From: Methanolobus bombayensis
GTDB lineage: Archaea; Halobacteriota; Methanosarcinia; Methanosarcinales; Methanosarcinaceae
Direction of reading: 5' to 3'
NCBI RefSeq assembly: GCF_017873415.1
Contig: NZ_JAGGKD010000001.1
Location: 403,973-443,972, forward strand
Length of the DNA: 40,000 bases
Positions 20,218 through 40,000 of the stretch are shown one piece after another (the first letter of the stretch is position 1; every line of letters starts with the position of its first letter). The notes below the pieces were generated by a model. It searched no databases. It was not told where the DNA came from and saw nothing but the letters and a program-made list of their open reading frames with translations. A program made the position numbers and the translations under genes.

Positions 20218-20284
20218 CTTTTTGCATTCTATCGAGTCCGCAATATTAATAAATAAAGGATATATTTATCCACTACTTCTTTTT

Positions 20285-20327
20285 GCGGGGGTTGCCCAGC
20301 CTGGCCAAAGGCGCAGGGCTTAGGACC
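20285..20327 (+). pseudogene. tRNA-Leu 5' fragment (acceptor 5' strand, D-arm, 5' anticodon stem and loop) with a duplicated upstream region
   Basis: The fragment GCGGGGGTTGCCCAGCCTGGCCAAAGGCGCAGGGCTTAGGACC matches the first 43 nt of the intact tRNA-Leu at 20423 with 3 substitutions. Downstream there is no matching 3' anticodon-stem strand, no T-arm consensus and no acceptor 3' strand. Confidence 0.65.
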
Positions 20328-20422
20328 ATATTCATAGGGCTTCATAGCATTTCTATGAAAAATAGATATCTCATTGCGTAATATTAATATGTGAACAATA
20401 TATTTAATGACTACTCTTTTAT

Positions 20423-20507
20423 GCGGGGGTTGCCCAGCTTGGCCAAAGGCGATGGGCTTAGGACCCATTCTCGTAGGAGTCCGTGAGTTCGAATCTCACC
20501 TCCCGCA
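20423..20507 (+). tRNA. tRNA-Leu (anticodon UAG), long variable arm, no encoded CCA; casposon integration target
   Basis: The sequence is GCGGGGGTTGCCCAGCTTGGCCAAAGGCGATGGGCTTAGGACCCATTCTCGTAGGAGTCCGTGAGTTCGAATCTCACCTCCCGCA. The anticodon stem ATGGG pairs with CCCAT and the loop is CT-TAG-GA. The T-arm is GTGAG-TTCGAAT-CTCAC and the acceptor GCGGGGG pairs with CTCCCGC. Confidence 0.85.
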
Positions 20508-20517
20508 TCATTTACCT
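20504..20517. repeat. Target-site duplication copy 1 (CGCATCATTTACCT)
   Basis: This 14-mer is identical to those at 29500-29513 and 38033-38046. It covers the last 4 nt of tRNA-Leu plus 10 nt downstream. The shared string is 16 nt if the two preceding C residues are counted. Confidence 0.85.
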
Positions 20518-20556
20518 GGGATATATACAAGGCGAAAAAAGTGTACGCTTTTGCAA
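20518..20556. repeat. Casposon 1 left terminal inverted repeat
   Basis: GGGATATATACAAGGCGAAAAAAGTGTACGCTTTTGCAA matches the reverse complement of 29461-29499 (GGGATATATACAAGGCGAAAAAAGTGTACGCTTTTGTAA) with one mismatch. Confidence 0.9.
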
Positions 20557-20730
20557 GCATCCCACATAACTATATTATAGAGTTATCAAAGAAAATATTT
20601 TATTTGCATAAATCAGAAGTACAACTCACAGTTTTCTAATATATTCATCTGCTTCGAAATACAATAATTCCACATATGACAAATACAGAAGGAATAAGTC
20701 TATAAATTTAAATACTTCTCAAGCAATTCT

Positions 20731-21366
20731 TTGATGAATAAAATGTTTAATATCAAAAAGGTTACTTCACATATCTTTAATGCAGTAATTCAGGGTTTAA
20801 TATTTGGACTTACTGGGACAATATTAATTTTTGCAATAATATTCATAGCTATTTCACTGTTTCCTACACTCAAAATGTTTGTGCCCTTTACTACTGAAAA
20901 CATGGAGTTATTAAATGTTTCTCTTACGGTTGTTTTTGTATTTGTAACTAGTATTTACGTTTATTTTACATATCAAATTGTGGAACAGTCTTCTATTGAT
21001 CGAAAGATTTCTTTTACTGAAAAAAAACTTGTAAACTTCTATTACCCATTAGAAGATTTCATGAAATTTTCTGTCAAAGCCGTGGGAGATGAACCAAATG
21101 AAAGAGAATTGAGGCGAGATTCAGGTCTTGACACGGTAGAAAAAAGAAATTCCAATCCTATTTATCGAGATATTGTAAAAAACAAATATCTTGCTGACAA
21201 TGAAACCAGAGCCATTTTAGATTCTTTTTTAGACATTTTATCACAGAACAGCAGGTCAAAAAAACCCGAGCATTTATCTGTTTATGATAATTTAAACGCT
21301 TTAGTAAGTTTGAAAATAAAATCTTCACTTGAAGAACTCAATTCATTACTAAATGAGAAAAAATAA
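20731..21366 (+). CDS. Hypothetical membrane-anchored protein (casposon 1 left-arm cargo)
   Basis: The 211-aa product has two N-terminal TM segments and then a charged helical domain. It has no counterpart in casposon 2. The track start is TTG 20731, with an ATG at 20734. Confidence 0.5.
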   Translation: MMNKMFNIKKVTSHIFNAVIQGLIFGLTGTILIFAIIFIAISLFPTLKMFVPFTTENMELLNVSLTVVFVFVTSIYVYFTYQIVEQSSIDRKISFTEKKLVNFYYPLEDFMKFSVKAVGDEPNERELRRDSGLDTVEKRNSNPIYRDIVKNKYLADNETRAILDSFLDILSQNSRSKKPEHLSVYDNLNALVSLKIKSSLEELNSLLNEKK

Positions 21367-24437: not shown

Positions 24438-24794
24438 TTGTCCAACGAAGATTTTATTTTGCAGATAAAACAGCAAGCTAAGAGCGAACAGCTTGTTAAA
24501 AATGGTATCTGCGAAATTTGTGGAGAGACTAATCCCTATGCTTTGAAAATCTACGAGAATCATCACATTTCCACAAGAGGCTTTTCGGATGAAACAAGAG
24601 TGCTTTGTCTGAACTGTCATGCTGCTGTAACTCATTTTCAAAATGAACTCCCTCCTAAGTTTAGATCAAGCCAATTACCGCTAGAGGAGAGACTTGACTA
24701 TGTTCTGCTTACACATGCGGCACTCAGGAAAAGAATGGATGAGATTGAGATTGATTTGTTAAGAAAGAGATATGAGGGAATTAAAAATGAATAA
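24438..24794 (+). CDS. HNH endonuclease
   Basis: The 118-aa product has CEICGE...YENHHIS...LCLNCHAAVT, the HNH/zinc-finger pattern. It uses a TTG start. A homologue sits at the same position in casposon 2. Confidence 0.75.
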   Translation: MSNEDFILQIKQQAKSEQLVKNGICEICGETNPYALKIYENHHISTRGFSDETRVLCLNCHAAVTHFQNELPPKFRSSQLPLEERLDYVLLTHAALRKRMDEIEIDLLRKRYEGIKNE

Positions 24795-27483
24795 TGTTGC
24801 ATTGAGGACATTCTCAACAAAAGAGGAAGAGATGAAGAAACAATTTCCTTACACGTATAAACAAGAGATACCTGATTTTTCCAGAGTCTTGACATTCGAT
24901 ACTGAAACAACAGCAGATGAGTTCCTTAACCTGAAGTTTGGCTCGTTCATGGTACATGAGAATGACGTGTATCAATATGCAGGCTTGTTCTGGGATGACA
25001 GACATGTATCAAAAAAAGAGTATAAAGTGCTGAAAGCGTATGCAGAGAAGTACAACATACGCTTATTCTCTCTTGAAGAGTTTATCAAGATATTTTATTT
25101 GGAAATCTACGAAAGAAAAACGCTCTGTATTGGTTATAACATCAACTTCGACCTGTCACGGATAATTTTAGATTATGGGCATGGCAGGTATTCAGGCAAG
25201 GATGGATTCTCCTTCAAACTAACTGAAGATACAACCTATCCACGTCTTCGCATCAAGCACCTGACAGGCAGATCATACAACGTTGAGTTTACAAGAGCAA
25301 AGGGTAAGTACAGGAAAGAGAGGACGTTCAAAGGTCATTTTCTGGATGTAGCCAATCTTGCATGTACATTGACCGACAATAAATCTCTCACACTTGAGAA
25401 GGCTTGTGAGATATTTGATACTCCAATAAAGAAGAAATCAATAAGCAAACATGGAGTAATAACTCCAAACTATATTGATTACAACATTACAGACGTAAGA
25501 TCAACTTATGAGCTATTCAAAAAAGTAAGCCAGGAGTATGAAAGGTATCAGTTGGCGATTCCAATGACTGATATTTACTCTGCTGCTTCTCTTGGAAAGC
25601 AGGCACTTAATCAGTTCAACATTGCACCTTTTATGCAGCATAATAATGATTTTCCTCCTGAACTTATCGGTAATCAGATGAGTGGATACTATGGAGGAAG
25701 ATGTGAGTGCAAGATAAGGAGAACACCTACTAAGGTTACAGTTCTGGATTTCTTCAGTATGTACCCAACTGTAACCCTCCTTCTTGGTCTTTGGGATTTT
25801 GTGATTGCAGATAAAATCCATCATGTTGATGACACAGAGAACGTCAGGCAATTTATTGAAGAATTTACGTTTGAGGATGCTCTTAACCGTGATATTTGGG
25901 AGAAGCTAAACGTTCTTGTTGAAATAGAGCCTGATGATGATATTCTACCTGTTAGAACAAAGTATGCAGGAGAGGATGGAACGTTAAACATCGGTATTAA
26001 TCACATAACAATGAATGAATCGTTGTATTACTTCTTGCCTGACATTCTTGCCTCAAAGCTGCTTACAGGTAAAACTCCCAAGATAAAGAGAGCTATCAGG
26101 TTTATTCCTGAAGGCATACAGGAAAGTCTCACAGAATCAGAAGTCTATGGAGTTCATGTGAATCCAAAAGAGGATAATCTCATCAAAGTTCTCGTTGAAC
26201 GTAGGCAGGAGATTAAGAATGAGATGAAGAAGGTATCAAAGGACTCTCATGACTATGATGTTCTGGATGCACAACAGAGAGCCTTGAAGATTCTTAATAA
26301 TTCCACAACATACGGGATTTATATTGAGATGCATCCAAAGGAAGAGGAAAAACTGAGAGTATTTAGCAACGTTGAGTTTGATTCTAAAGGAAAATATGAA
26401 CAGCCTGGGAAATACTTCAATGCCATCATAGGAGCAAATATTACAGCAGGAGCAAGGCTATTGCTTGCTATTGCAGAGAAGTTTGTGATGGATAAAGGTG
26501 AGGTTCATGCATACATGGATACAGATTCTATTTTTGTTCCTCCGCATCTTGCAGACGAATTGAGTCATCTTTTTGATTCTCTGAATCCTTATGATTTTGA
26601 TAAGCCAATCCTTGAGATTGAGGACGGAATGGAAGACATTTGGTTCTATGGTATCAGTTCCAAGAGATATTGTTTGTTCAGGGAAGAAGGAAATAAGATC
26701 ATCATTCCTGAAGGAAAGAAGCTGTTCTATAAACTGCATGGATTAGGACACATAACAAATCCATTCAAAAGGGAATTGGAGGAAGGAGACCAATGGCACA
26801 AGAAGTTATGGGAGGATATTCTCAGAGTCCATTTTCATCCTGAAGAGCTTCCTGATGTGTTGGAGAAATATGAGAACTATGCTGTAATTTCTAAACTTGC
26901 AGTTTCAACAGGAACAATATTGAGACGATTTGAGAGAATGAACGAAGGGAAGCCATTTGATAAACAAATCAAGCCTTTCAACTTCATGCTTGTTGGGAGT
27001 GGTGCAACAATCAATGAGGATGGGGAGAAGGTCAAGCCTGTTGCTCCTTACAACAATAATCCACAAGTTGCTATTGAGAATGAGTTCATAGACTACAATA
27101 CAGGAGATACGCTTCAAGGAAGGGAATACTGGAAGCCATTAAGTGATGTATTCCTTGATTACATAAATCATCCTGAAGCTAAATTTGAAGGAGATATAGG
27201 AGTACTGCAAAGGAGACATCTTACTCCTACTGGGTGCGTGTATATTGGTAAGGAAGCAAATAAGGTTGAAATGCAGGAATTAGAGAGCAATGAAGTTGAG
27301 ATATACCACGATATAGAGAAGATAAGGGAATTTGTTCTAGGTTTAAAGCCTGATAAAGCTAAAGAGATTGGAATTGAGCATAGGAGCGCATTAAAGCAAT
27401 TGAAGGATAGGGTAAGAGAAGGAGACTTTAATATGAATACTAAATTGATGAGGATGGTAATAGGAAAAATTTATAGTAGATAA
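24772..27483 (+). CDS. polB: Family B DNA polymerase (casposon PolB)
   Basis: The exonuclease motifs are ExoI FDTETT, ExoII YNINFDLSRI and ExoIII YNITDV. The polymerase motifs are A LDFFSMYPT, B KILNNSTTYG, C YMDTDSIF and KxY SSKRY. By homology with the casposon 2 copy, the likely true start is ATG 24787 (MNNVALR...). Confidence 0.9.
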   Translation: MRELKMNNVALRTFSTKEEEMKKQFPYTYKQEIPDFSRVLTFDTETTADEFLNLKFGSFMVHENDVYQYAGLFWDDRHVSKKEYKVLKAYAEKYNIRLFSLEEFIKIFYLEIYERKTLCIGYNINFDLSRIILDYGHGRYSGKDGFSFKLTEDTTYPRLRIKHLTGRSYNVEFTRAKGKYRKERTFKGHFLDVANLACTLTDNKSLTLEKACEIFDTPIKKKSISKHGVITPNYIDYNITDVRSTYELFKKVSQEYERYQLAIPMTDIYSAASLGKQALNQFNIAPFMQHNNDFPPELIGNQMSGYYGGRCECKIRRTPTKVTVLDFFSMYPTVTLLLGLWDFVIADKIHHVDDTENVRQFIEEFTFEDALNRDIWEKLNVLVEIEPDDDILPVRTKYAGEDGTLNIGINHITMNESLYYFLPDILASKLLTGKTPKIKRAIRFIPEGIQESLTESEVYGVHVNPKEDNLIKVLVERRQEIKNEMKKVSKDSHDYDVLDAQQRALKILNNSTTYGIYIEMHPKEEEKLRVFSNVEFDSKGKYEQPGKYFNAIIGANITAGARLLLAIAEKFVMDKGEVHAYMDTDSIFVPPHLADELSHLFDSLNPYDFDKPILEIEDGMEDIWFYGISSKRYCLFREEGNKIIIPEGKKLFYKLHGLGHITNPFKRELEEGDQWHKKLWEDILRVHFHPEELPDVLEKYENYAVISKLAVSTGTILRRFERMNEGKPFDKQIKPFNFMLVGSGATINEDGEKVKPVAPYNNNPQVAIENEFIDYNTGDTLQGREYWKPLSDVFLDYINHPEAKFEGDIGVLQRRHLTPTGCVYIGKEANKVEMQELESNEVEIYHDIEKIREFVLGLKPDKAKEIGIEHRSALKQLKDRVREGDFNMNTKLMRMVIGKIYSR

Positions 27484-27500
27484 AATCTTTAAAAAGAGTT

Positions 27501-28388
27501 GTGACTGGTAAATCTATCAAGGAAATAATTGAAGATCATAAAAAAATCATGTCTTCTCTAAACATCAATAAAACTCTAAATAACTTAAGTAGTTCATTTA
27601 TTCTACCTTCTTCTTTCAATAATGGTAGGCAAAAGTCTTTAAAAAAAGTAATAACCGAGATAAATGAATATGAAAAAGCTGGTAACAACTATTCTGACGA
27701 AATTTGCCACACATGTAATAAAAAAATAAATAGTCATCTATTTTACTCTTTAAGAAAATATGAAGAGGTACAATTAGATGATGATTTGGAATATAGAGTA
27801 GAGGATCAATTAGAAGACAAACTAATTGAATGTAATGATTTTTGTTCAGGCTCTTGCCTTGAAGCATTTTCTGACAAACATGAAGAGACAATTGAGGAAT
27901 ATGAACTATATGAGGTCAGAAGATGTTCTTGTTATTATGACTGTCTTGATCTTGAAAACATAAGAGGGATTTGTGAAAGAGAAGAACGTTTAGATTATGA
28001 ATCTAACCTTTTCCCATCACTTCCATTACATAATTTTTGTGAACCAGCTGACGCAGGCATAATCAAAGCATCAATAAATATTAAAAAGCAATTAGACGAA
28101 GGATCAAAGCAAAATTCAGATCATTTTAAGATAACAGCAGTAATGACTATATTAGTAATATTGTTAACTATCGCCAATATTTTCCTTGTAATTGATACAA
28201 ATTATGAACATCAGCTAGATAGTATAGATGCAAAACTTGGTGCGATTAACAACAGTCTCTCATCTCTTAATAATCAAGCCAATGACATTAATTCTGAACT
28301 AGATCCAAGCACTCTTTTAGTCAGTAGTAATTTAGAAAACTCTCTAGATAATACCAATAAGACAGTTGAATTCTCAAATAAAAGTTGA
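27501..28388 (+). CDS. Hypothetical Cys-rich protein with a C-terminal TM segment (casposon 1 right-arm cargo)
   Basis: The 295-aa product uses a GTG start. It has several Cys clusters (CHTCNKK, CNDFCSGSC, CSCYYDC), one TM segment (ITAVMTILVILLTIANIFLVI) and an N/S-rich tail. It has no counterpart in casposon 2. Confidence 0.5.
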   Translation: MTGKSIKEIIEDHKKIMSSLNINKTLNNLSSSFILPSSFNNGRQKSLKKVITEINEYEKAGNNYSDEICHTCNKKINSHLFYSLRKYEEVQLDDDLEYRVEDQLEDKLIECNDFCSGSCLEAFSDKHEETIEEYELYEVRRCSCYYDCLDLENIRGICEREERLDYESNLFPSLPLHNFCEPADAGIIKASINIKKQLDEGSKQNSDHFKITAVMTILVILLTIANIFLVIDTNYEHQLDSIDAKLGAINNSLSSLNNQANDINSELDPSTLLVSSNLENSLDNTNKTVEFSNKS

Positions 28389-28399
28389 AATATTCAAAT

Positions 28400-28504
28400 A
28401 TGGAAAAAATAATAACATTTATTGTATGCATGATTATATTAGGCATTGCACTCATTGGAGTTTTGCTGTTTTTAGCCTGGTTTGATCCTACTTTATCTAC
28501 GTGA
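28400..28504 (+). CDS. Possible 34-aa hydrophobic peptide
   Basis: Absent from the track. My translation is MEKIITFIVCMIILGIALIGVLLFLAWFDPTLST, a single TM segment. The only evidence is the ORF and its hydrophobicity. Confidence 0.3.
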   Translation: MEKIITFIVCMIILGIALIGVLLFLAWFDPTLST

Positions 28505-28522
28505 GCATAGTGGTTTAGGTGA

Positions 28523-28918
28523 TTATGTCTTTTTAGGAAGCATAAGAAATGGTAGAAAAACTGCTAGGATAATAAGAAGAATGTAAAGTAAAAAGATATA
28601 CATTTTTGTGTAGGATTGTGTTATTTGTATCGAATCTGATGTAAAGATATAATACGAAGAAAAGATTCCAAATAGAACATATAAACCAATTGTTTCAAAA
28701 TAAACTTTGAAAGGAAGACTCTTTTTAGATGCTTTAATATAACTGTTTTTTTGATTTAAGGCTTGAGAAGCTTGGTTACTAGCATATTGGATTTTTGCCA
28801 CAGAATCATAATATTCTTCTATATTTGTTTTGAACGTAAAAAATTTATCGTTATCTGTGTAGCTCAAATTATCAATATCTTCTTGACTCAAATTTGTTAT
28901 TTGATTATTTTCAAGCAT
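28523..28918 (-). CDS. Small protein with a soluble N-terminal helix region and a C-terminal 2-TM hairpin (casposon 1 cargo)
   Basis: The 131-aa product is a paralogue of the adjacent gene. Shared pattern: ...SNQASQALNQKNSYIKASKKSLPF versus ...ESQASSFKQEKEKISYERADKKYIPF. Both then have two TM segments and end in LPKK. Confidence 0.55.
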   Translation of the reverse strand: MLENNQITNLSQEDIDNLSYTDNDKFFTFKTNIEEYYDSVAKIQYASNQASQALNQKNSYIKASKKSLPFKVYFETIGLYVLFGIFSSYYIFTSDSIQITQSYTKMYIFLLYILLIILAVFLPFLMLPKKT

Positions 28919-28929
28919 ATATTATCCCT

Positions 28930-29340
28930 CTATTTTTTAGGGAGAATACGTAAAGGTGTGAGCAACGCAACAACAAAAATTAACGTTATAAAAGAAGCAA
29001 TTAAAGCATAATACTTTAAATTTGTCTCCTCAATTAAAGGTAGCCTAAATATGATAGCAAATAAAAAAACACTTCCACTTATTGCTGTTGCTGCTACTCT
29101 CCAACAATATGACAAGAAAGGTATATATTTTTTATCAGCTCTCTCGTATGATATTTTTTCTTTTTCCTGTTTAAAAGAAGAAGCCTGACTCTCAAATACT
29201 CTTGACAATGACTGGTTATATGATATTTGTTTTTGGATAAAATCGTCAAAATTTCGCCTTTCATCAGCTTTCAATTTCATATAATCTTCAGCTTTGTAAT
29301 TAGTTGCCAACTCTACCGTTAATTGAGTCATATAATCCAC
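28930..29340 (-). CDS. Small protein with a soluble N-terminal helix region and a C-terminal 2-TM hairpin (casposon 1 cargo, paralogue)
   Basis: The 136-aa product has the same architecture as 28523-28918 and lies in tandem with it, 11 nt apart. Confidence 0.55.
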   Translation of the reverse strand: MDYMTQLTVELATNYKAEDYMKLKADERRNFDDFIQKQISYNQSLSRVFESQASSFKQEKEKISYERADKKYIPFLSYCWRVAATAISGSVFLFAIIFRLPLIEETNLKYYALIASFITLIFVVALLTPLRILPKK

Positions 29341-29460
29341 TCCTACTATTATATTATACCAAGAATTTATTATAAAAAGATGCCTATTTTGTTTTGAATG
29401 ACTAATAAAAATATAAAAGTCGGTATTACAAAGTTATGAATATCTGATTTTGTATGAACA

Positions 29461-29499
29461 TTACAAAAGCGTACACTTTTTTCGCCTTGTATATATCCC
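29461..29499. repeat. Casposon 1 right terminal inverted repeat
   Basis: ttacaaaagcgtacacttttttcgccttgtatatatccc is the reverse complement of the left TIR with one mismatch. Confidence 0.9.
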
Positions 29500-29513
29500 C
29501 GCATCATTTACCT
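29500..29513. repeat. Target-site duplication copy 2 (CGCATCATTTACCT), shared junction between the two casposons
   Basis: This copy is identical to the other two. It lies exactly between the right TIR of casposon 1 and the left TIR of casposon 2. Confidence 0.85.
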
Positions 29514-29543
29514 GGGTAATAGGTAACGCCAAAAAACCGAACT
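29514..29543. repeat. Casposon 2 left terminal inverted repeat
   Basis: GGGTAATAGGTAACGCCAAAAAACCGAACT matches the reverse complement of 38003-38032 (GGGTAATAGGTAAGCCCAAAAAACCGAACT) with two adjacent mismatches (CG/GC). Confidence 0.85.
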
Positions 29544-29669: not shown

Positions 29670-30551
29670 ATGGTTAATGACAATCCTAATATTTTTTACA
29701 AATATCGAAGTGTTAATGAAAATACAATTAAAATGCTAGAAAACCAGGAATTGTATTTTAGTGGTGCTTCAGATTTCAATGATCCTTTTGATTCAAAAGC
29801 TGACTTGATTTGGAGGGGCAATAAAGATGATTGGATGAGCTTTTTATATAGAATGGGTATTAAGAACCATGCACAACGCGAACAATCCATCAAAGAAAAC
29901 CTTAAAAATGGGTCTTTAAGAAATAGAAAAGGAGAATATTTATTAGACCCAAATAGAACTGCTTTTAAGGTACTTAAAGGGAATATTCAACTTAATAATA
30001 AACCTGATTTTCCGAGAGCTTGTTGTTTTAGCGAAGACAACGATAGTATCTTAATGTGGAGTCACTATGCAGATGAGCATAAAGGAATATGCTTATGCTT
30101 TAAATCTAAAATAATAGAGACGGGAGATTTTTTATATTTAGATTCTAATCCTGATCCCTACCTACTTTTTCCAATAACATATCAAGAAGACATGCCTGAA
30201 CAAGTAAACATGTTGAGCAGTTATGAACCTGAAGAATTGGTATCTTTTTTATGCACCAAACATTTTGATTGGAAGTATGAAAAAGAGCGTCGTTTGATAA
30301 TGTGGCCTATTGATTTCAATACTCATGGGCAATATACTAAAAAATTTAGAAAAGAAGATTTAGAAGGAATTATTTTTGGGTTGAATACCCCTACTGACCA
30401 TATAAAAATGATTAAGACGATTATAGACGAACAATACCTTAAAGAAGGTTTTAAAGTTAATTTCTATAAGGCTCAGGAATTGCAAAAAAAATATGGTATT
30501 TATATTAAGCCAATAGACGATTTAGATAAGCACATAGAAAAATACTGTTAG
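29670..30551 (+). CDS. DUF2971-family protein (casposon 2 left-arm cargo)
   Basis: The 293-aa product has IFYKYRSVNENTIKMLENQELYFSGASDFNDPFDS and CFSEDNDSILMWSHYADEHKGICLCF. Both match the DUF2971 signature as I remember it. Confidence 0.65.
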   Translation: MVNDNPNIFYKYRSVNENTIKMLENQELYFSGASDFNDPFDSKADLIWRGNKDDWMSFLYRMGIKNHAQREQSIKENLKNGSLRNRKGEYLLDPNRTAFKVLKGNIQLNNKPDFPRACCFSEDNDSILMWSHYADEHKGICLCFKSKIIETGDFLYLDSNPDPYLLFPITYQEDMPEQVNMLSSYEPEELVSFLCTKHFDWKYEKERRLIMWPIDFNTHGQYTKKFRKEDLEGIIFGLNTPTDHIKMIKTIIDEQYLKEGFKVNFYKAQELQKKYGIYIKPIDDLDKHIEKYC

Positions 30552-38002: not shown

Positions 38003-38032
38003 AGTTCGGTTTTTTGGGCTTACCTATTACCC
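38003..38032. repeat. Casposon 2 right terminal inverted repeat
   Basis: agttcggttttttgggcttacctattaccc is the reverse complement of the left TIR with 2 mismatches. Confidence 0.85.
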
Positions 38033-38288: not shown

Positions 38289-40000
38289 CTCCTCTTGCGT
38301 TGGTATATTACAATTTGATTTTGAATACATTCTCTGCCGATTCTTACGCCACGAGATTAGTGTTTCAATCCTTGTTTTAGTGGATCTTGATTTTGAATGA
38401 TGGAGTTCTTCAGGAATGGTGTGATTGTACCTTTGTTTCAATCCTTGTTTTAGTGGATCTTGATTTTGAATCCGTCAATTATTACAATTTTGTATCCCAA
38501 TTCAACAGCTTTTAGTTTCAATCCTTGTTTTAGTGGATCTTGATTTTGAATTATTTTACAGTAATGAGCCTTAACTCATTACTTTTAGTTTCAATCCTTG
38601 TTTTAGTGGATCTTGATTTTGAATATCAGAGGTATTTGCAGCCGGTGAAACAGTTACATGTTTCAATCCTTGTTTTAGTGGATCTTGATTTTGAATAATA
38701 TGCTTTTCCTCGTTGAGAACCAGCATAATTGTTTCAATCCTTGTTTTAGTGGATCTTGATTTTGAATCTCCATTTCATTAATTGCTGTATTAGGCTGATA
38801 TCGTTTCAATCCTTGTTTTAGTGGATCTTGATTTTGAATTTGTTAATGTATTCCATTTTAATAGTACCATTCTTTTGTTTCAATCCTTGTTTTAGTGGAT
38901 CTTGATTTTGAATGATACGAGAATAACATAGCAATAGCAGCTATGATAAGTTTCAATCCTTGTTTTAGTGGATCTTGATTTTGAATTATTCCATTGGTGT
39001 TGAATATGATATACCTCCATTGTTTCAATCCTTGTTTTAGTGGATCTTGATTTTGAATTTATCAATTATCTTGACCGCAACCATATGAGATAATCCAGTT
39101 TCAATCCTTGTTTTAGTGGATCTTGATTTTGAATTGATTCTATCTTCTTTAATCTTCTCTGTTCCTTAAGTTTCAATCCTTGTTTTAGTGGATCTTGATT
39201 TTGAATGATAAATTGTGAACATTTTCAGTAAGTTTAGACATGATAGTTTCAATCCTTGTTTTAGTGGATCTTGATTTTGAATAAAATGAGTTATATTAAT
39301 ATCGTTTCTAGTATCAAGTTTCAATCCTTGTTTTAGTGGATCTTGATTTTGAATTCTTTCATCGGTATATACACATTTAACATTGAGGTTTCAATCCTTG
39401 TTTTAGTGGATCTTGATTTTGAATGCTTGTAAACGGTGGCATGTGATAAGTTTTCTTATAGTTTCAATCCTTGTTTTAGTGGATCTTGATTTTGAATCAG
39501 TTAAGAACAATTGGGGCAGTGATAATGTATATGGTTTCAATCCTTGTTTTAGTGGATCTTGATTTTGAATAAATGGCTCATTGCATATTTCAATATCGTA
39601 ACCATTGTTTCAATCCTTGTTTTAGTGGATCTTGATTTTGAATTGCTATCCATCAGGTACTTTCATCTTCATTATTGAGTTTCAATCCTTGTTTTAGTGG
39701 ATCTTGATTTTGAATCTAACCATAATTCGTATAGAAAAATCATCATGATATGTTTCAATCCTTGTTTTAGTGGATCTTGATTTTGAATTAGAAAATATTT
39801 TAGATGATAGATTTATCGTTTATAAGTTTCAATCCTTGTTTTAGTGGATCTTGATTTTGAATCTGCTGTCATTGGTTATTATATTGTTTTTATGGGAGTT
39901 TCAATCCTTGTTTTAGTGGATCTTGATTTTGAATAAAATTTTTGCTTCACTAGCTGCAAGCTCTTCACAGTTTCAATCCTTGTTTTAGTGGATCTTGATT
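38289..40000 (-). CRISPR. CRISPR array of 37-nt repeats; continues past the window end
   Basis: There are 22 identical repeats GTTTCAATCCTTGTTTTAGTGGATCTTGATTTTGAAT, the first at 38362-38398. One more repeat is truncated at 39970-40000. A degenerate copy at 38289-38325 matches 23/37, including the last 12 nt. The 23 spacers are unique and 33-43 nt long. The minus-strand repeat ends in ATTGAAAC, which is why I assign the minus strand. Confidence 0.95.

Follow-up and report, generated by a model that had tools for sequence, protein, structure and literature searches.

What does a casposon carry between its polymerase gene and its end, and what might that cargo do? The question is raised by a 40,000-nt stretch of Methanolobus bombayensis DNA (contig NZ_JAGGKD010000001.1, positions 403,973 to 443,972; hereafter the window) in which two casposons stand in tandem downstream of a tRNA-Leu gene. 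The right cargo slot of the first, casposon 1, extends from the stop codon of its family-B polymerase gene, polB, to its right terminal inverted repeat (TIR) and occupies positions 27484-29447. An earlier note on this DNA, made from the letters alone, had placed four open reading frames (ORFs) there: a Cys-rich protein of 295 amino acids (aa) with one transmembrane (TM) segment, a possible 34-aa TM peptide and two small membrane proteins described as tandem paralogues. All four are found at the positions it gave (Table 1). The two small proteins, referred to here as A and B, are the main subject of this work.

Casposons have been studied almost only for their Cas1 integrase and its link to the origin of CRISPR adaptation, and their cargo is largely uncharted. 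Among cassettes dedicated to casposon ends, the A/B pair is the clearest example; it is without known relatives and outlives the element. In the whole genome (3.1 Mb, 35 contigs), profile searches find a single A, a single B and a single 295-aa gene, with no further copies. Since each is single-copy genome-wide, none of them is present in casposon 2, as the earlier note had stated. Its description of these genes as accessory cargo of a mobile element is also borne out: A, B and the 295-aa gene are rare and occupy a slot of variable content, flanked by a core gene and the TIR.

Paralogy, motifs and predicted architecture of A and B

BLASTP finds no match between A and B, a miss which we attribute to an effect of filtering or composition and which, as evidence against paralogy, is overruled by three other comparisons. 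The Smith-Waterman score of A against B is 97, compared with 33+-6 in shuffled sequences, and none of 2000 shuffles reaches it, nor does any of 2000 in which shuffling was confined to 15-residue windows. Without composition correction, tblastn leads from B to A-type genes across subfamilies (E 1e-8 to 1e-9). Finally, hhalign aligns an 8-member A profile with an 8-member B profile over 120 columns (98.2% probability, E 4e-14). Judged by their sequences, A and B are true paralogues, as had been proposed.

Conserved throughout the family are the motif K.S[YF]..A.K..[IL]P[FLI] before the first TM helix (TM1), a Tyr after this motif, a Gln in the loop and the C-terminus P...LPKK (B ends LPKKT). Of the motif read from the window by the earlier note, QAS...K.SY..A.KK..PF followed by a terminal LPKK, the K.S[YF]..A.K part and LPKK are thus family-wide, whereas QAS is peculiar to the window's two copies. 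Family members are 128-149 aa long, with an N-terminal domain of about 65-70 residues (about 68 in B) and a minimal C-tail, the chain ending 4-6 residues beyond the second TM helix. The AlphaFold2 (AF2) model of A (confidence score pLDDT 72) has a helix at residues 22-65 and TM helices at 69-99 and 102-129. Over the family as a whole the segment before TM1 carries a net positive charge, the 11-residue loop a net negative one and the tail a net positive one. Because of this charge pattern around the predicted hairpin, both termini, and with them the N-terminal domain, are predicted to be cytoplasmic. The N-terminal domains of A and B show no systematic charge complementarity.

A is better conserved than B (mean column identity 71% vs 58%). 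In the least saturated comparisons the ratio of non-synonymous to synonymous substitution rates (dN/dS) is 0.24-0.35 for A and 0.35 for B, values which indicate that the pair is under purifying selection. The A gene begins about 110 bp inside the right TIR and reads inward; B follows 11 nt after its stop codon, with a GAGGGA ribosome-binding motif 7 nt upstream of B. Because an AGGAG motif lies upstream of ATG 29331, this codon is the more probable start of A than GTG 29340, and the resulting 133 aa equal the length of a called gene (P0001). The previously given length of 131 aa holds for B, and the 136 aa given for A should probably be 133.

Distribution and genomic contexts of the pair

The A/B family is very small. 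Eight proteins match at E<=1e-3 among 1.84 billion representatives. Within the genus, 2 of 36 genomes have a strong match. Over the 284 genomes of the order these two are joined by three with weak or fragmentary matches, whereas a casposon PolB is present in 64 of the 284. Among 185,579 species there is one other genome, one more metagenome contig was found, and 2.9 million viral contigs (IMG/VR) gave no match. By the measure of these searches, A and B form an orphan family that is found only in Methanolobus and its close relatives.

The order of the two genes, A followed by B, is fixed in every contig (L001, L005/6, L007-11, L027, L028 and L029-31), with a spacing of 11-65 nt or an overlap. 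Where the sequence upstream of A can be read, it always contains a casposon-type TIR at a distance of 100-400 bp, from which the pair reads inward; this amounts to five independent contexts, three of them decayed remnants. Contexts of the pair also include tRNA 3' ends beside the TIR. In a Methanolobus metagenome-assembled genome (L001), a tRNA-Leu(cag) is followed by a divergent TIR of the casposon 1 type and then by A and B, and the casposon core is absent. A non-autonomous mini-casposon was considered for this locus and rejected; because no partner TIR is found downstream of the pair, it is read as a solo-TIR remnant. In L007-11 the succession is a tRNA 3' end, a TIR of the casposon 2 type, A and B, a convergent cas1 3' fragment and an IS4 transposase, and in L029-31 a tRNA 3' end, a TIR, A and B, and a DUF234 ATPase. 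Upstream of the pair at L005:1300-1620 are two nested, successive relics resembling a tRNA 3' end with its TIR, which suggests repeated casposon insertion and decay at one site. A further genome (G162) has a B fragment beside a cas1 3' fragment. These contexts therefore place the pair in the polB-end slot of one casposon lineage and in the cas1-end slot of another.

Three of the elements are decayed, with the cas1/polB core lost or broken, and retain the pair intact (L001, L007, L029). Most casposons lack the pair, among them casposon 2, a third casposon of the same genome and about ten sister elements (PolB 76-89% identical), and it occurs together with the 295-aa gene only in the window. In all contexts its neighbours are casposon genes, TIRs, tRNA, the IS4 transposase, the DUF234 ATPase and unannotated proteins. 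The earlier note had left it to a survey whether these genes travel with other casposons. They do, A and B in other casposons and their remnants and the 295-aa gene behind polB in sister casposons.

Distant relatives of A and B exist as single copies without a partner (G135, P0019 and P0023). The first (L023:1444-2894) is 118 aa long, has an extra W-rich amphipathic C-terminal tail, as do P0019 and P0023, and adjoins a 333-aa protein matching the viral family phrog_38135 (E 1.6e-44) in a small islet amid housekeeping genes. At L001:11100-12741 a Cys-rich single-TM protein of 461 aa comes after the pair, and a 58-aa ORF after that. The first part of the 58-aa ORF and the 67 nt upstream of it are a duplicate, at 76% identity, of the start of the gene for the 461-aa protein.

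Cargo slots at the two casposon ends

In nine sister casposons (PolB 76-89% identical, right TIR conserved) the interval between polB and the TIR measures 0.9-2.4 kb and holds different genes in almost every element. Among them are a serpin with a lipoprotein-like signal, a secreted 316-aa protein, a DUF427 protein, a FilR1-like regulator and a 274-aa TM protein. In one genome (G139; L049:2343-4267) the slot contains a RES-domain toxin (Pfam RES, E 1e-11) with a 279-aa gene beside it, and the two may form a toxin-antitoxin pair of the RES type. The third casposon of the window's genome (L050; contig 2, 180700-188000), with a PolB 76% identical to that of casposon 1, carries an ApeA-type HEPN defence protein there (PDC-S58, E 2e-65; Pfam ApeA_NTD1 and HEPN_Apea).

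The other end is similarly occupied. The left-arm cargo of casposon 2 (window 29670-30551) is a DUF2971 gene of the candidate defence family PDC-S31 (E 2e-52), located between the TIR and cas1, the same slot in which A and B lie in L007-L011. A gutted casposon on a metagenome contig (L014:1-5760) has cas1 3' and polB 3' fragments flanking a complete ABC-3C system (AAA_23 ATPase, MC2, CTD6), beyond which follow a gene of the 295-aa family, a TIR of the casposon 1 type and a tRNA-Leu(taa). Both ends of Methanolobus-type casposons are cargo hot-spots that exchange cassettes between casposon lineages.

The defence context to which the earlier note had pointed is present in sister elements, whose slots hold ApeA, the RES toxin, ABC-3C and DUF2971/PDC-S31. 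Conflict-type genes make up 4 of 7 annotatable cargo units, a share that is suggestive of, not decisive for, a conflict role.

The left arm of casposon 1 carries cargo of its own (window 20731-21366), a protein of 211 aa in which a TM hairpin at the N-terminus precedes a helical region at the C-terminus. It has the SLATT-like domain order that A and B lack; it gives no significant match in Pfam, PADLOC or PHROGs and has no similarity to A or B.

Searches against known families

Pfam and PHROGs return no significant family for any of the four ORFs of the slot, and the defence models of PADLOC-DB 2.0 match none of them at E<=1. The A model finds nothing in the PDB or BFVD with Foldseek at E<=0.001. 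Homology to housekeeping membrane proteins, which the earlier note had set against its own interpretation of the cargo as membrane effectors, was not found for the proteins. A sub-threshold similarity to DUF2207_C in 10 of 19 family members spans the hairpin and the preceding helix; it scores no more than 19 bits where the cut-off is 33, and membership was rejected, the match being best understood as a likeness of composition and topology.

The earlier note had compared the layout of A and B with SLATT/DUF4231-type effectors, a comparison that fails at every level tried. The SLATT and DUF4231 Pfam models match neither A nor B at E<=1 and, when relaxed to E<=10, still match none of the 19 members of the family. 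Searched with DUF4231, the window's genome yields nothing, although genuine members occur in 2 of 11 sampled congeners. When A, B and A+B profiles were aligned by hhalign with 8 genuine DUF4231 proteins from congeners (a mis-called ORF, L033, being left out of the alignment), probabilities were 0.3-1.9%, compared with the 98.2% of A against B as positive control. No SMODS, SLOG, TIR-domain or other nucleotide-signalling partner gene occurs in any A/B context, and the order of domains is inverted, as described below.

Possible roles of the pair

A and B would be produced together from a single transcript in which they are closely spaced, and could assemble into a heteromeric membrane complex of four or more helices, with their cytoplasmic helices paired. 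Such a complex might act in membrane-level conflict or maintenance by blocking the entry of competing elements or viruses; alternatively, within the same role, its activity could be abortive or addictive, one paralogue tempering the other. For the class as a whole (exclusion, abortive activity or addiction), this putative role is a plausible if tentative proposal, and the likeliest of the explanations considered. The more specific form, a new two-component membrane module of methanogenic archaea in which a terminal paralogous heterodimer excludes rivals or viruses or makes loss of the casposon costly, is possible, with doubt prevailing.

Several observations weigh against a role in conflict or maintenance. 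No homology points to any particular activity of A or B, for which PADLOC, PHROGs, Pfam, PDB sequences and Foldseek are all without a significant match. No sensor, nuclease or regulator gene stands beside the pair. The short contigs L027 and L028 contain no TIR. All that would speak for a heteromer is the paralogy of the two proteins and their co-occurrence. Guilt by association is weak because the slot also carries a serpin, a regulator and DUF427, which are clearly non-conflict genes.

The same mixed company of the slot, in which unannotated membrane or secreted proteins are found beside the serpin lipoprotein, the FilR1-like regulator and DUF427, would suit hitch-hiking accessory membrane proteins. 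In that case the slot would accept any gene, and A and B would have a physiological role, as envelope, stress or transport adaptor proteins, and none in conflict. The absence of defence-model matches and the moderate purifying selection agree with this. Accessory proteins of that kind would hardly be expected to be so extremely rare and patchy, or to lie exclusively at casposon termini wherever the flanks are visible, and no homologue of A or B is found in a housekeeping operon; we consider this explanation rather unlikely.

An addiction module would account for the fixed, tightly coupled two-gene operon and for its survival intact in the decayed L001, L007 and L029. One paralogue would be a membrane-damaging toxin and the other an antidote that heterodimerises with it in the membrane, in the manner of an antiholin and a holin, thereby stabilising the casposon end. 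The unequal rates at which A and B evolve and the RES toxin cassette in the same slot of G139 fit such a division of labour. The two proteins are, however, alike in architecture and dN/dS and have no similarity to known membrane toxins or holins; G162 retains a B fragment alone, with no sign that the loss was lethal, and the distant single-copy relatives (G135, P0019, P0023) do without a partner. A dedicated toxin and antidote are unlikely on this evidence.

The constant position of the pair beside the TIR, reading inward, also brings to mind a part in propagation of the element. Phage phi29 provides a precedent in p16.7 and p1, which tether protein-primed replication to the membrane. A and B, perhaps with the putative zinc-finger membrane protein, might similarly tether casposon DNA or its replication or transposition complex; in the window they adjoin a membrane-anchored, putatively nucleic-acid-binding zinc-ribbon protein that is itself linked to polB. 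A function of this kind is hard to reconcile with casposons that lack the pair, which are the majority and include casposon 2, the third casposon and about ten sister elements. Since, moreover, A and B are found with the Cys-rich gene in the window only and are kept where the core is gone, it is very unlikely.

That A and B are divergent SLATT/DUF4231-type effectors, suggested by a loose likeness (small two-TM proteins with a helical region on a mobile element), is the most improbable explanation of all, given that 0 of 19 members match, that hhalign gives 0.3-1.9% against 98.2% for A with B, that the window's genome lacks DUF4231 where 2 of 11 congeners have it, and that domain order, W..YR..E motif and SMODS/SLOG/TIR partners all disagree.

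If the proposed role in membrane-level conflict or maintenance is correct in the form of an exclusion or addiction module, there should be a testable host-interaction phenotype of a casposon in a methanogen, together with a new archaeal effector family of small membrane proteins. A heterodimeric conflict module would be the first casposon-borne membrane-level conflict system, with an effector family unrelated to SLATT, holins and known Abi proteins. If A and B have no such phenotype, they are simply orphan accessory membrane proteins.

The 295-aa Cys-rich protein and the mini-ORF

The 295-aa protein of the window has 10 Cys residues and one strong hydrophobic segment at about 206-235, and is a type-II-like membrane protein. 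Six homologues, 42-75% identical, share with it 8 invariant Cys in the N-terminal region (a CxxC, an FCSxSC and 4 more), a highly conserved amphipathic stretch, one TM segment and an N/S-rich helical C-tail. The family has a dN/dS of 0.29-0.39. Sub-threshold Pfam matches are to DUF7576 in 6 of 7 members (best E 1.2e-4) and to zf-FCS in 3 of 7 (best E 3.4e-3), all below gathering scores (best 18-22 bits against a cut-off of 27). The AF2 model is poor (pLDDT 51), with a beta-hairpin and a helix around the Cys motif; Foldseek finds nothing for it in the PDB at E<=0.001, and the family profile gives only weak coiled-coil noise in the C-tail against PDB sequences. The invariant motif and the weak sub-threshold matches hint at an FCS/TRASH-like zinc-ribbon signature in the N-terminal half. 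Homology was rejected both to the 461-aa Cys-rich TM protein of L001 (E 0.08) and to a 436-aa protein of casposon 2.

The gene lies directly 3' of polB in sister casposons (L012/13, G166) and 3' of a polB 3' fragment in L014 and L015; downstream of the homologues, after variable or no additional cargo, is a TIR of the casposon 1 type. It occurs in 2 of 284 genomes of the order, as against 64 with a casposon PolB. Even among the genomes with a casposon-1-type PolB it is present in 2 of about 10, and a status as core gene of the lineage was rejected. Because it is rare despite its constant place behind polB, it is regarded as cargo with a fixed position and not as core. It and the A-B operon are two accessory units of the slot that are independent of each other.

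The 34-aa mini-ORF has no family match in Pfam, PADLOC or PHROGs and no conserved counterpart beside any B or 295-aa homologue. Kinship with a similarly placed ORF in L029 was rejected, the similarity being at chance level (1119 of 5000 shuffles reach its score). The possible TM peptide of the earlier note exists as a hydrophobic ORF that conservation does not support, and is probably not a gene.

The host elements and their surroundings

Each of the two elements encodes one 400-aa Cas1 (Pfam Cas_Cas1, E 1.5e-69) and a family-B polymerase of roughly 900 aa (Pfam DNA_pol_B). With a Cas1 casposase that has a C-terminal helix-turn-helix (HTH), a family-B polymerase, TIRs and a target-site duplication (TSD), the host element belongs to the family-2 casposons. 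The TIRs of casposon 1 are 52 nt long and 87% complementary. The tRNA 3'-end sequence CCCGCATCATTTACCT constitutes the target duplication and is present at the end of tRNA-Leu, between the elements and after casposon 2. Homologues of casposon 1 PolB with 76-89% identity occur in about ten genomes of the order.

Table 1. Positions in the window of the right-arm cargo of casposon 1 and of the boundaries of both elements
Feature	Coordinates	Strand	Remarks
tRNA-Leu(tag)	20422-20509		two tandem elements downstream
Casposon 1 left TIR	20518-20569		abuts tRNA-Leu(tag)
Casposon 1 polB, family-B DNA polymerase	24772..27483	+	Pfam DNA_pol_B; stop is inner border of right-arm cargo slot
295-aa Cys-rich single-TM protein	27501..28388	+	ORF; start codon uncertain (GTG at 27501)
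Hydrophobic mini-ORF, 34 aa from ATG 28400 (39 aa from TTG 28385)	28400..28504	+	ORF; convergent with B
B, 131-aa paralogue	28523..28918	-	ORF; N-terminal helical domain and TM hairpin
A, 133-aa paralogue (136 aa from GTG 29340)	28930..29331	-	ORF; first gene of A-B operon
Casposon 1 right TIR	29448-29499		inverted repeat I1 with 20518-20569; conserved in sister casposons
TSD common to casposons 1 and 2	29499..29514		direct repeats D17/D18 of tRNA-Leu 3' end
Casposon 2 TIRs, 30 nt	29514-29543 and 38003-38032		

Two further features lie near the elements. At 20239-20327, 138 bp upstream of the intact gene, the promoter region and 5' half of tRNA-Leu are present a second time (83% identity); this copy is without the 3' half, is not called by ARAGORN and may have been left behind when this integration hot-spot was rearranged at an earlier time. 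Past the right end of casposon 2, at a distance of about 300 bp, begins a CRISPR array (37-nt repeats) that reaches the edge of the window (38355-40000).

Comparison with known systems

The SLATT/DUF4231 families (PF14015, PF18181 and relatives) have in common with A and B a small size, two TM helices with a helical soluble part, and a location in mobile or conflict loci. They differ in the order of these parts, DUF4231 having the TM hairpin first and a conserved C-terminal helical region after it, whereas in A and B the soluble helix comes first and the hairpin after. The W..YR..E motif of SLATT/DUF4231 is missing from A and B.

Holin/antiholin systems (lambda S105/S107) and small phage superinfection-exclusion proteins (T4 Imm) are likewise small two-TM proteins with both termini inside, encoded on mobile elements, and one of two related proteins might modulate the other in A and B as in holin/antiholin systems. 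The N-terminus of holins is short and their C-tail charged; in contrast, the N-terminal domain of A and B comprises 65-70 cytoplasmic residues, and a C-tail is almost lacking. A class II holin is a protein of 65-95 aa with two TM helices, a short N-terminus and a charged C-tail, and has a lysis enzyme gene adjacent to its own. A and B were rejected as members of this class by their size of 128-149 aa, their N-terminal domain and the missing lysin gene, none lying near them in the window, and PHROGs and BFVD show no similarity. Cell lysis by casposons is not known.

With the TRASH and MYM-type FCS zinc ribbons (zf-FCS PF06467; DUF7576 PF24461) the 295-aa protein shares the motif and spacing CxxC ... 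FCSxxC...F. Unlike these families, it has a long variable insert between two Cys pairs, and its second four-Cys cluster, TM anchor and extracellular coiled-coil-like tail are foreign to them.

The family-2 casposons of Methanosarcinales, including their tandem insertion at tRNA-Leu, have already been described (PMC4046053, PMC4779613). In the searchable text of casposon papers there is no description of cargo encoding membrane proteins, the A/B pair, the 295-aa protein or hypervariable end slots; the word "membrane" is absent from that of PMC4779613, and "transmembrane" stands in that of PMC4046053 only within a cited title. The cargo emphasised in the searchable text of the two papers is DNA-manipulating, unlike that of the window slot. 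As described there, MetMaz-C1, MetPsy-C1 and the tRNA-Leu tandem arrays share with the host element of the cargo a Cas1 with a C-terminal HTH, a PolB3-like polymerase, HNH and HTH genes, TIRs, a TSD of 14-16 bp, the tRNA-Leu 3'-end target, one TSD shared by tandem insertions, and solo-TIR remnants. The host element and its tandem arrangement are known, and A and B add a new family to a category already recognised, the cargo of mobile elements.

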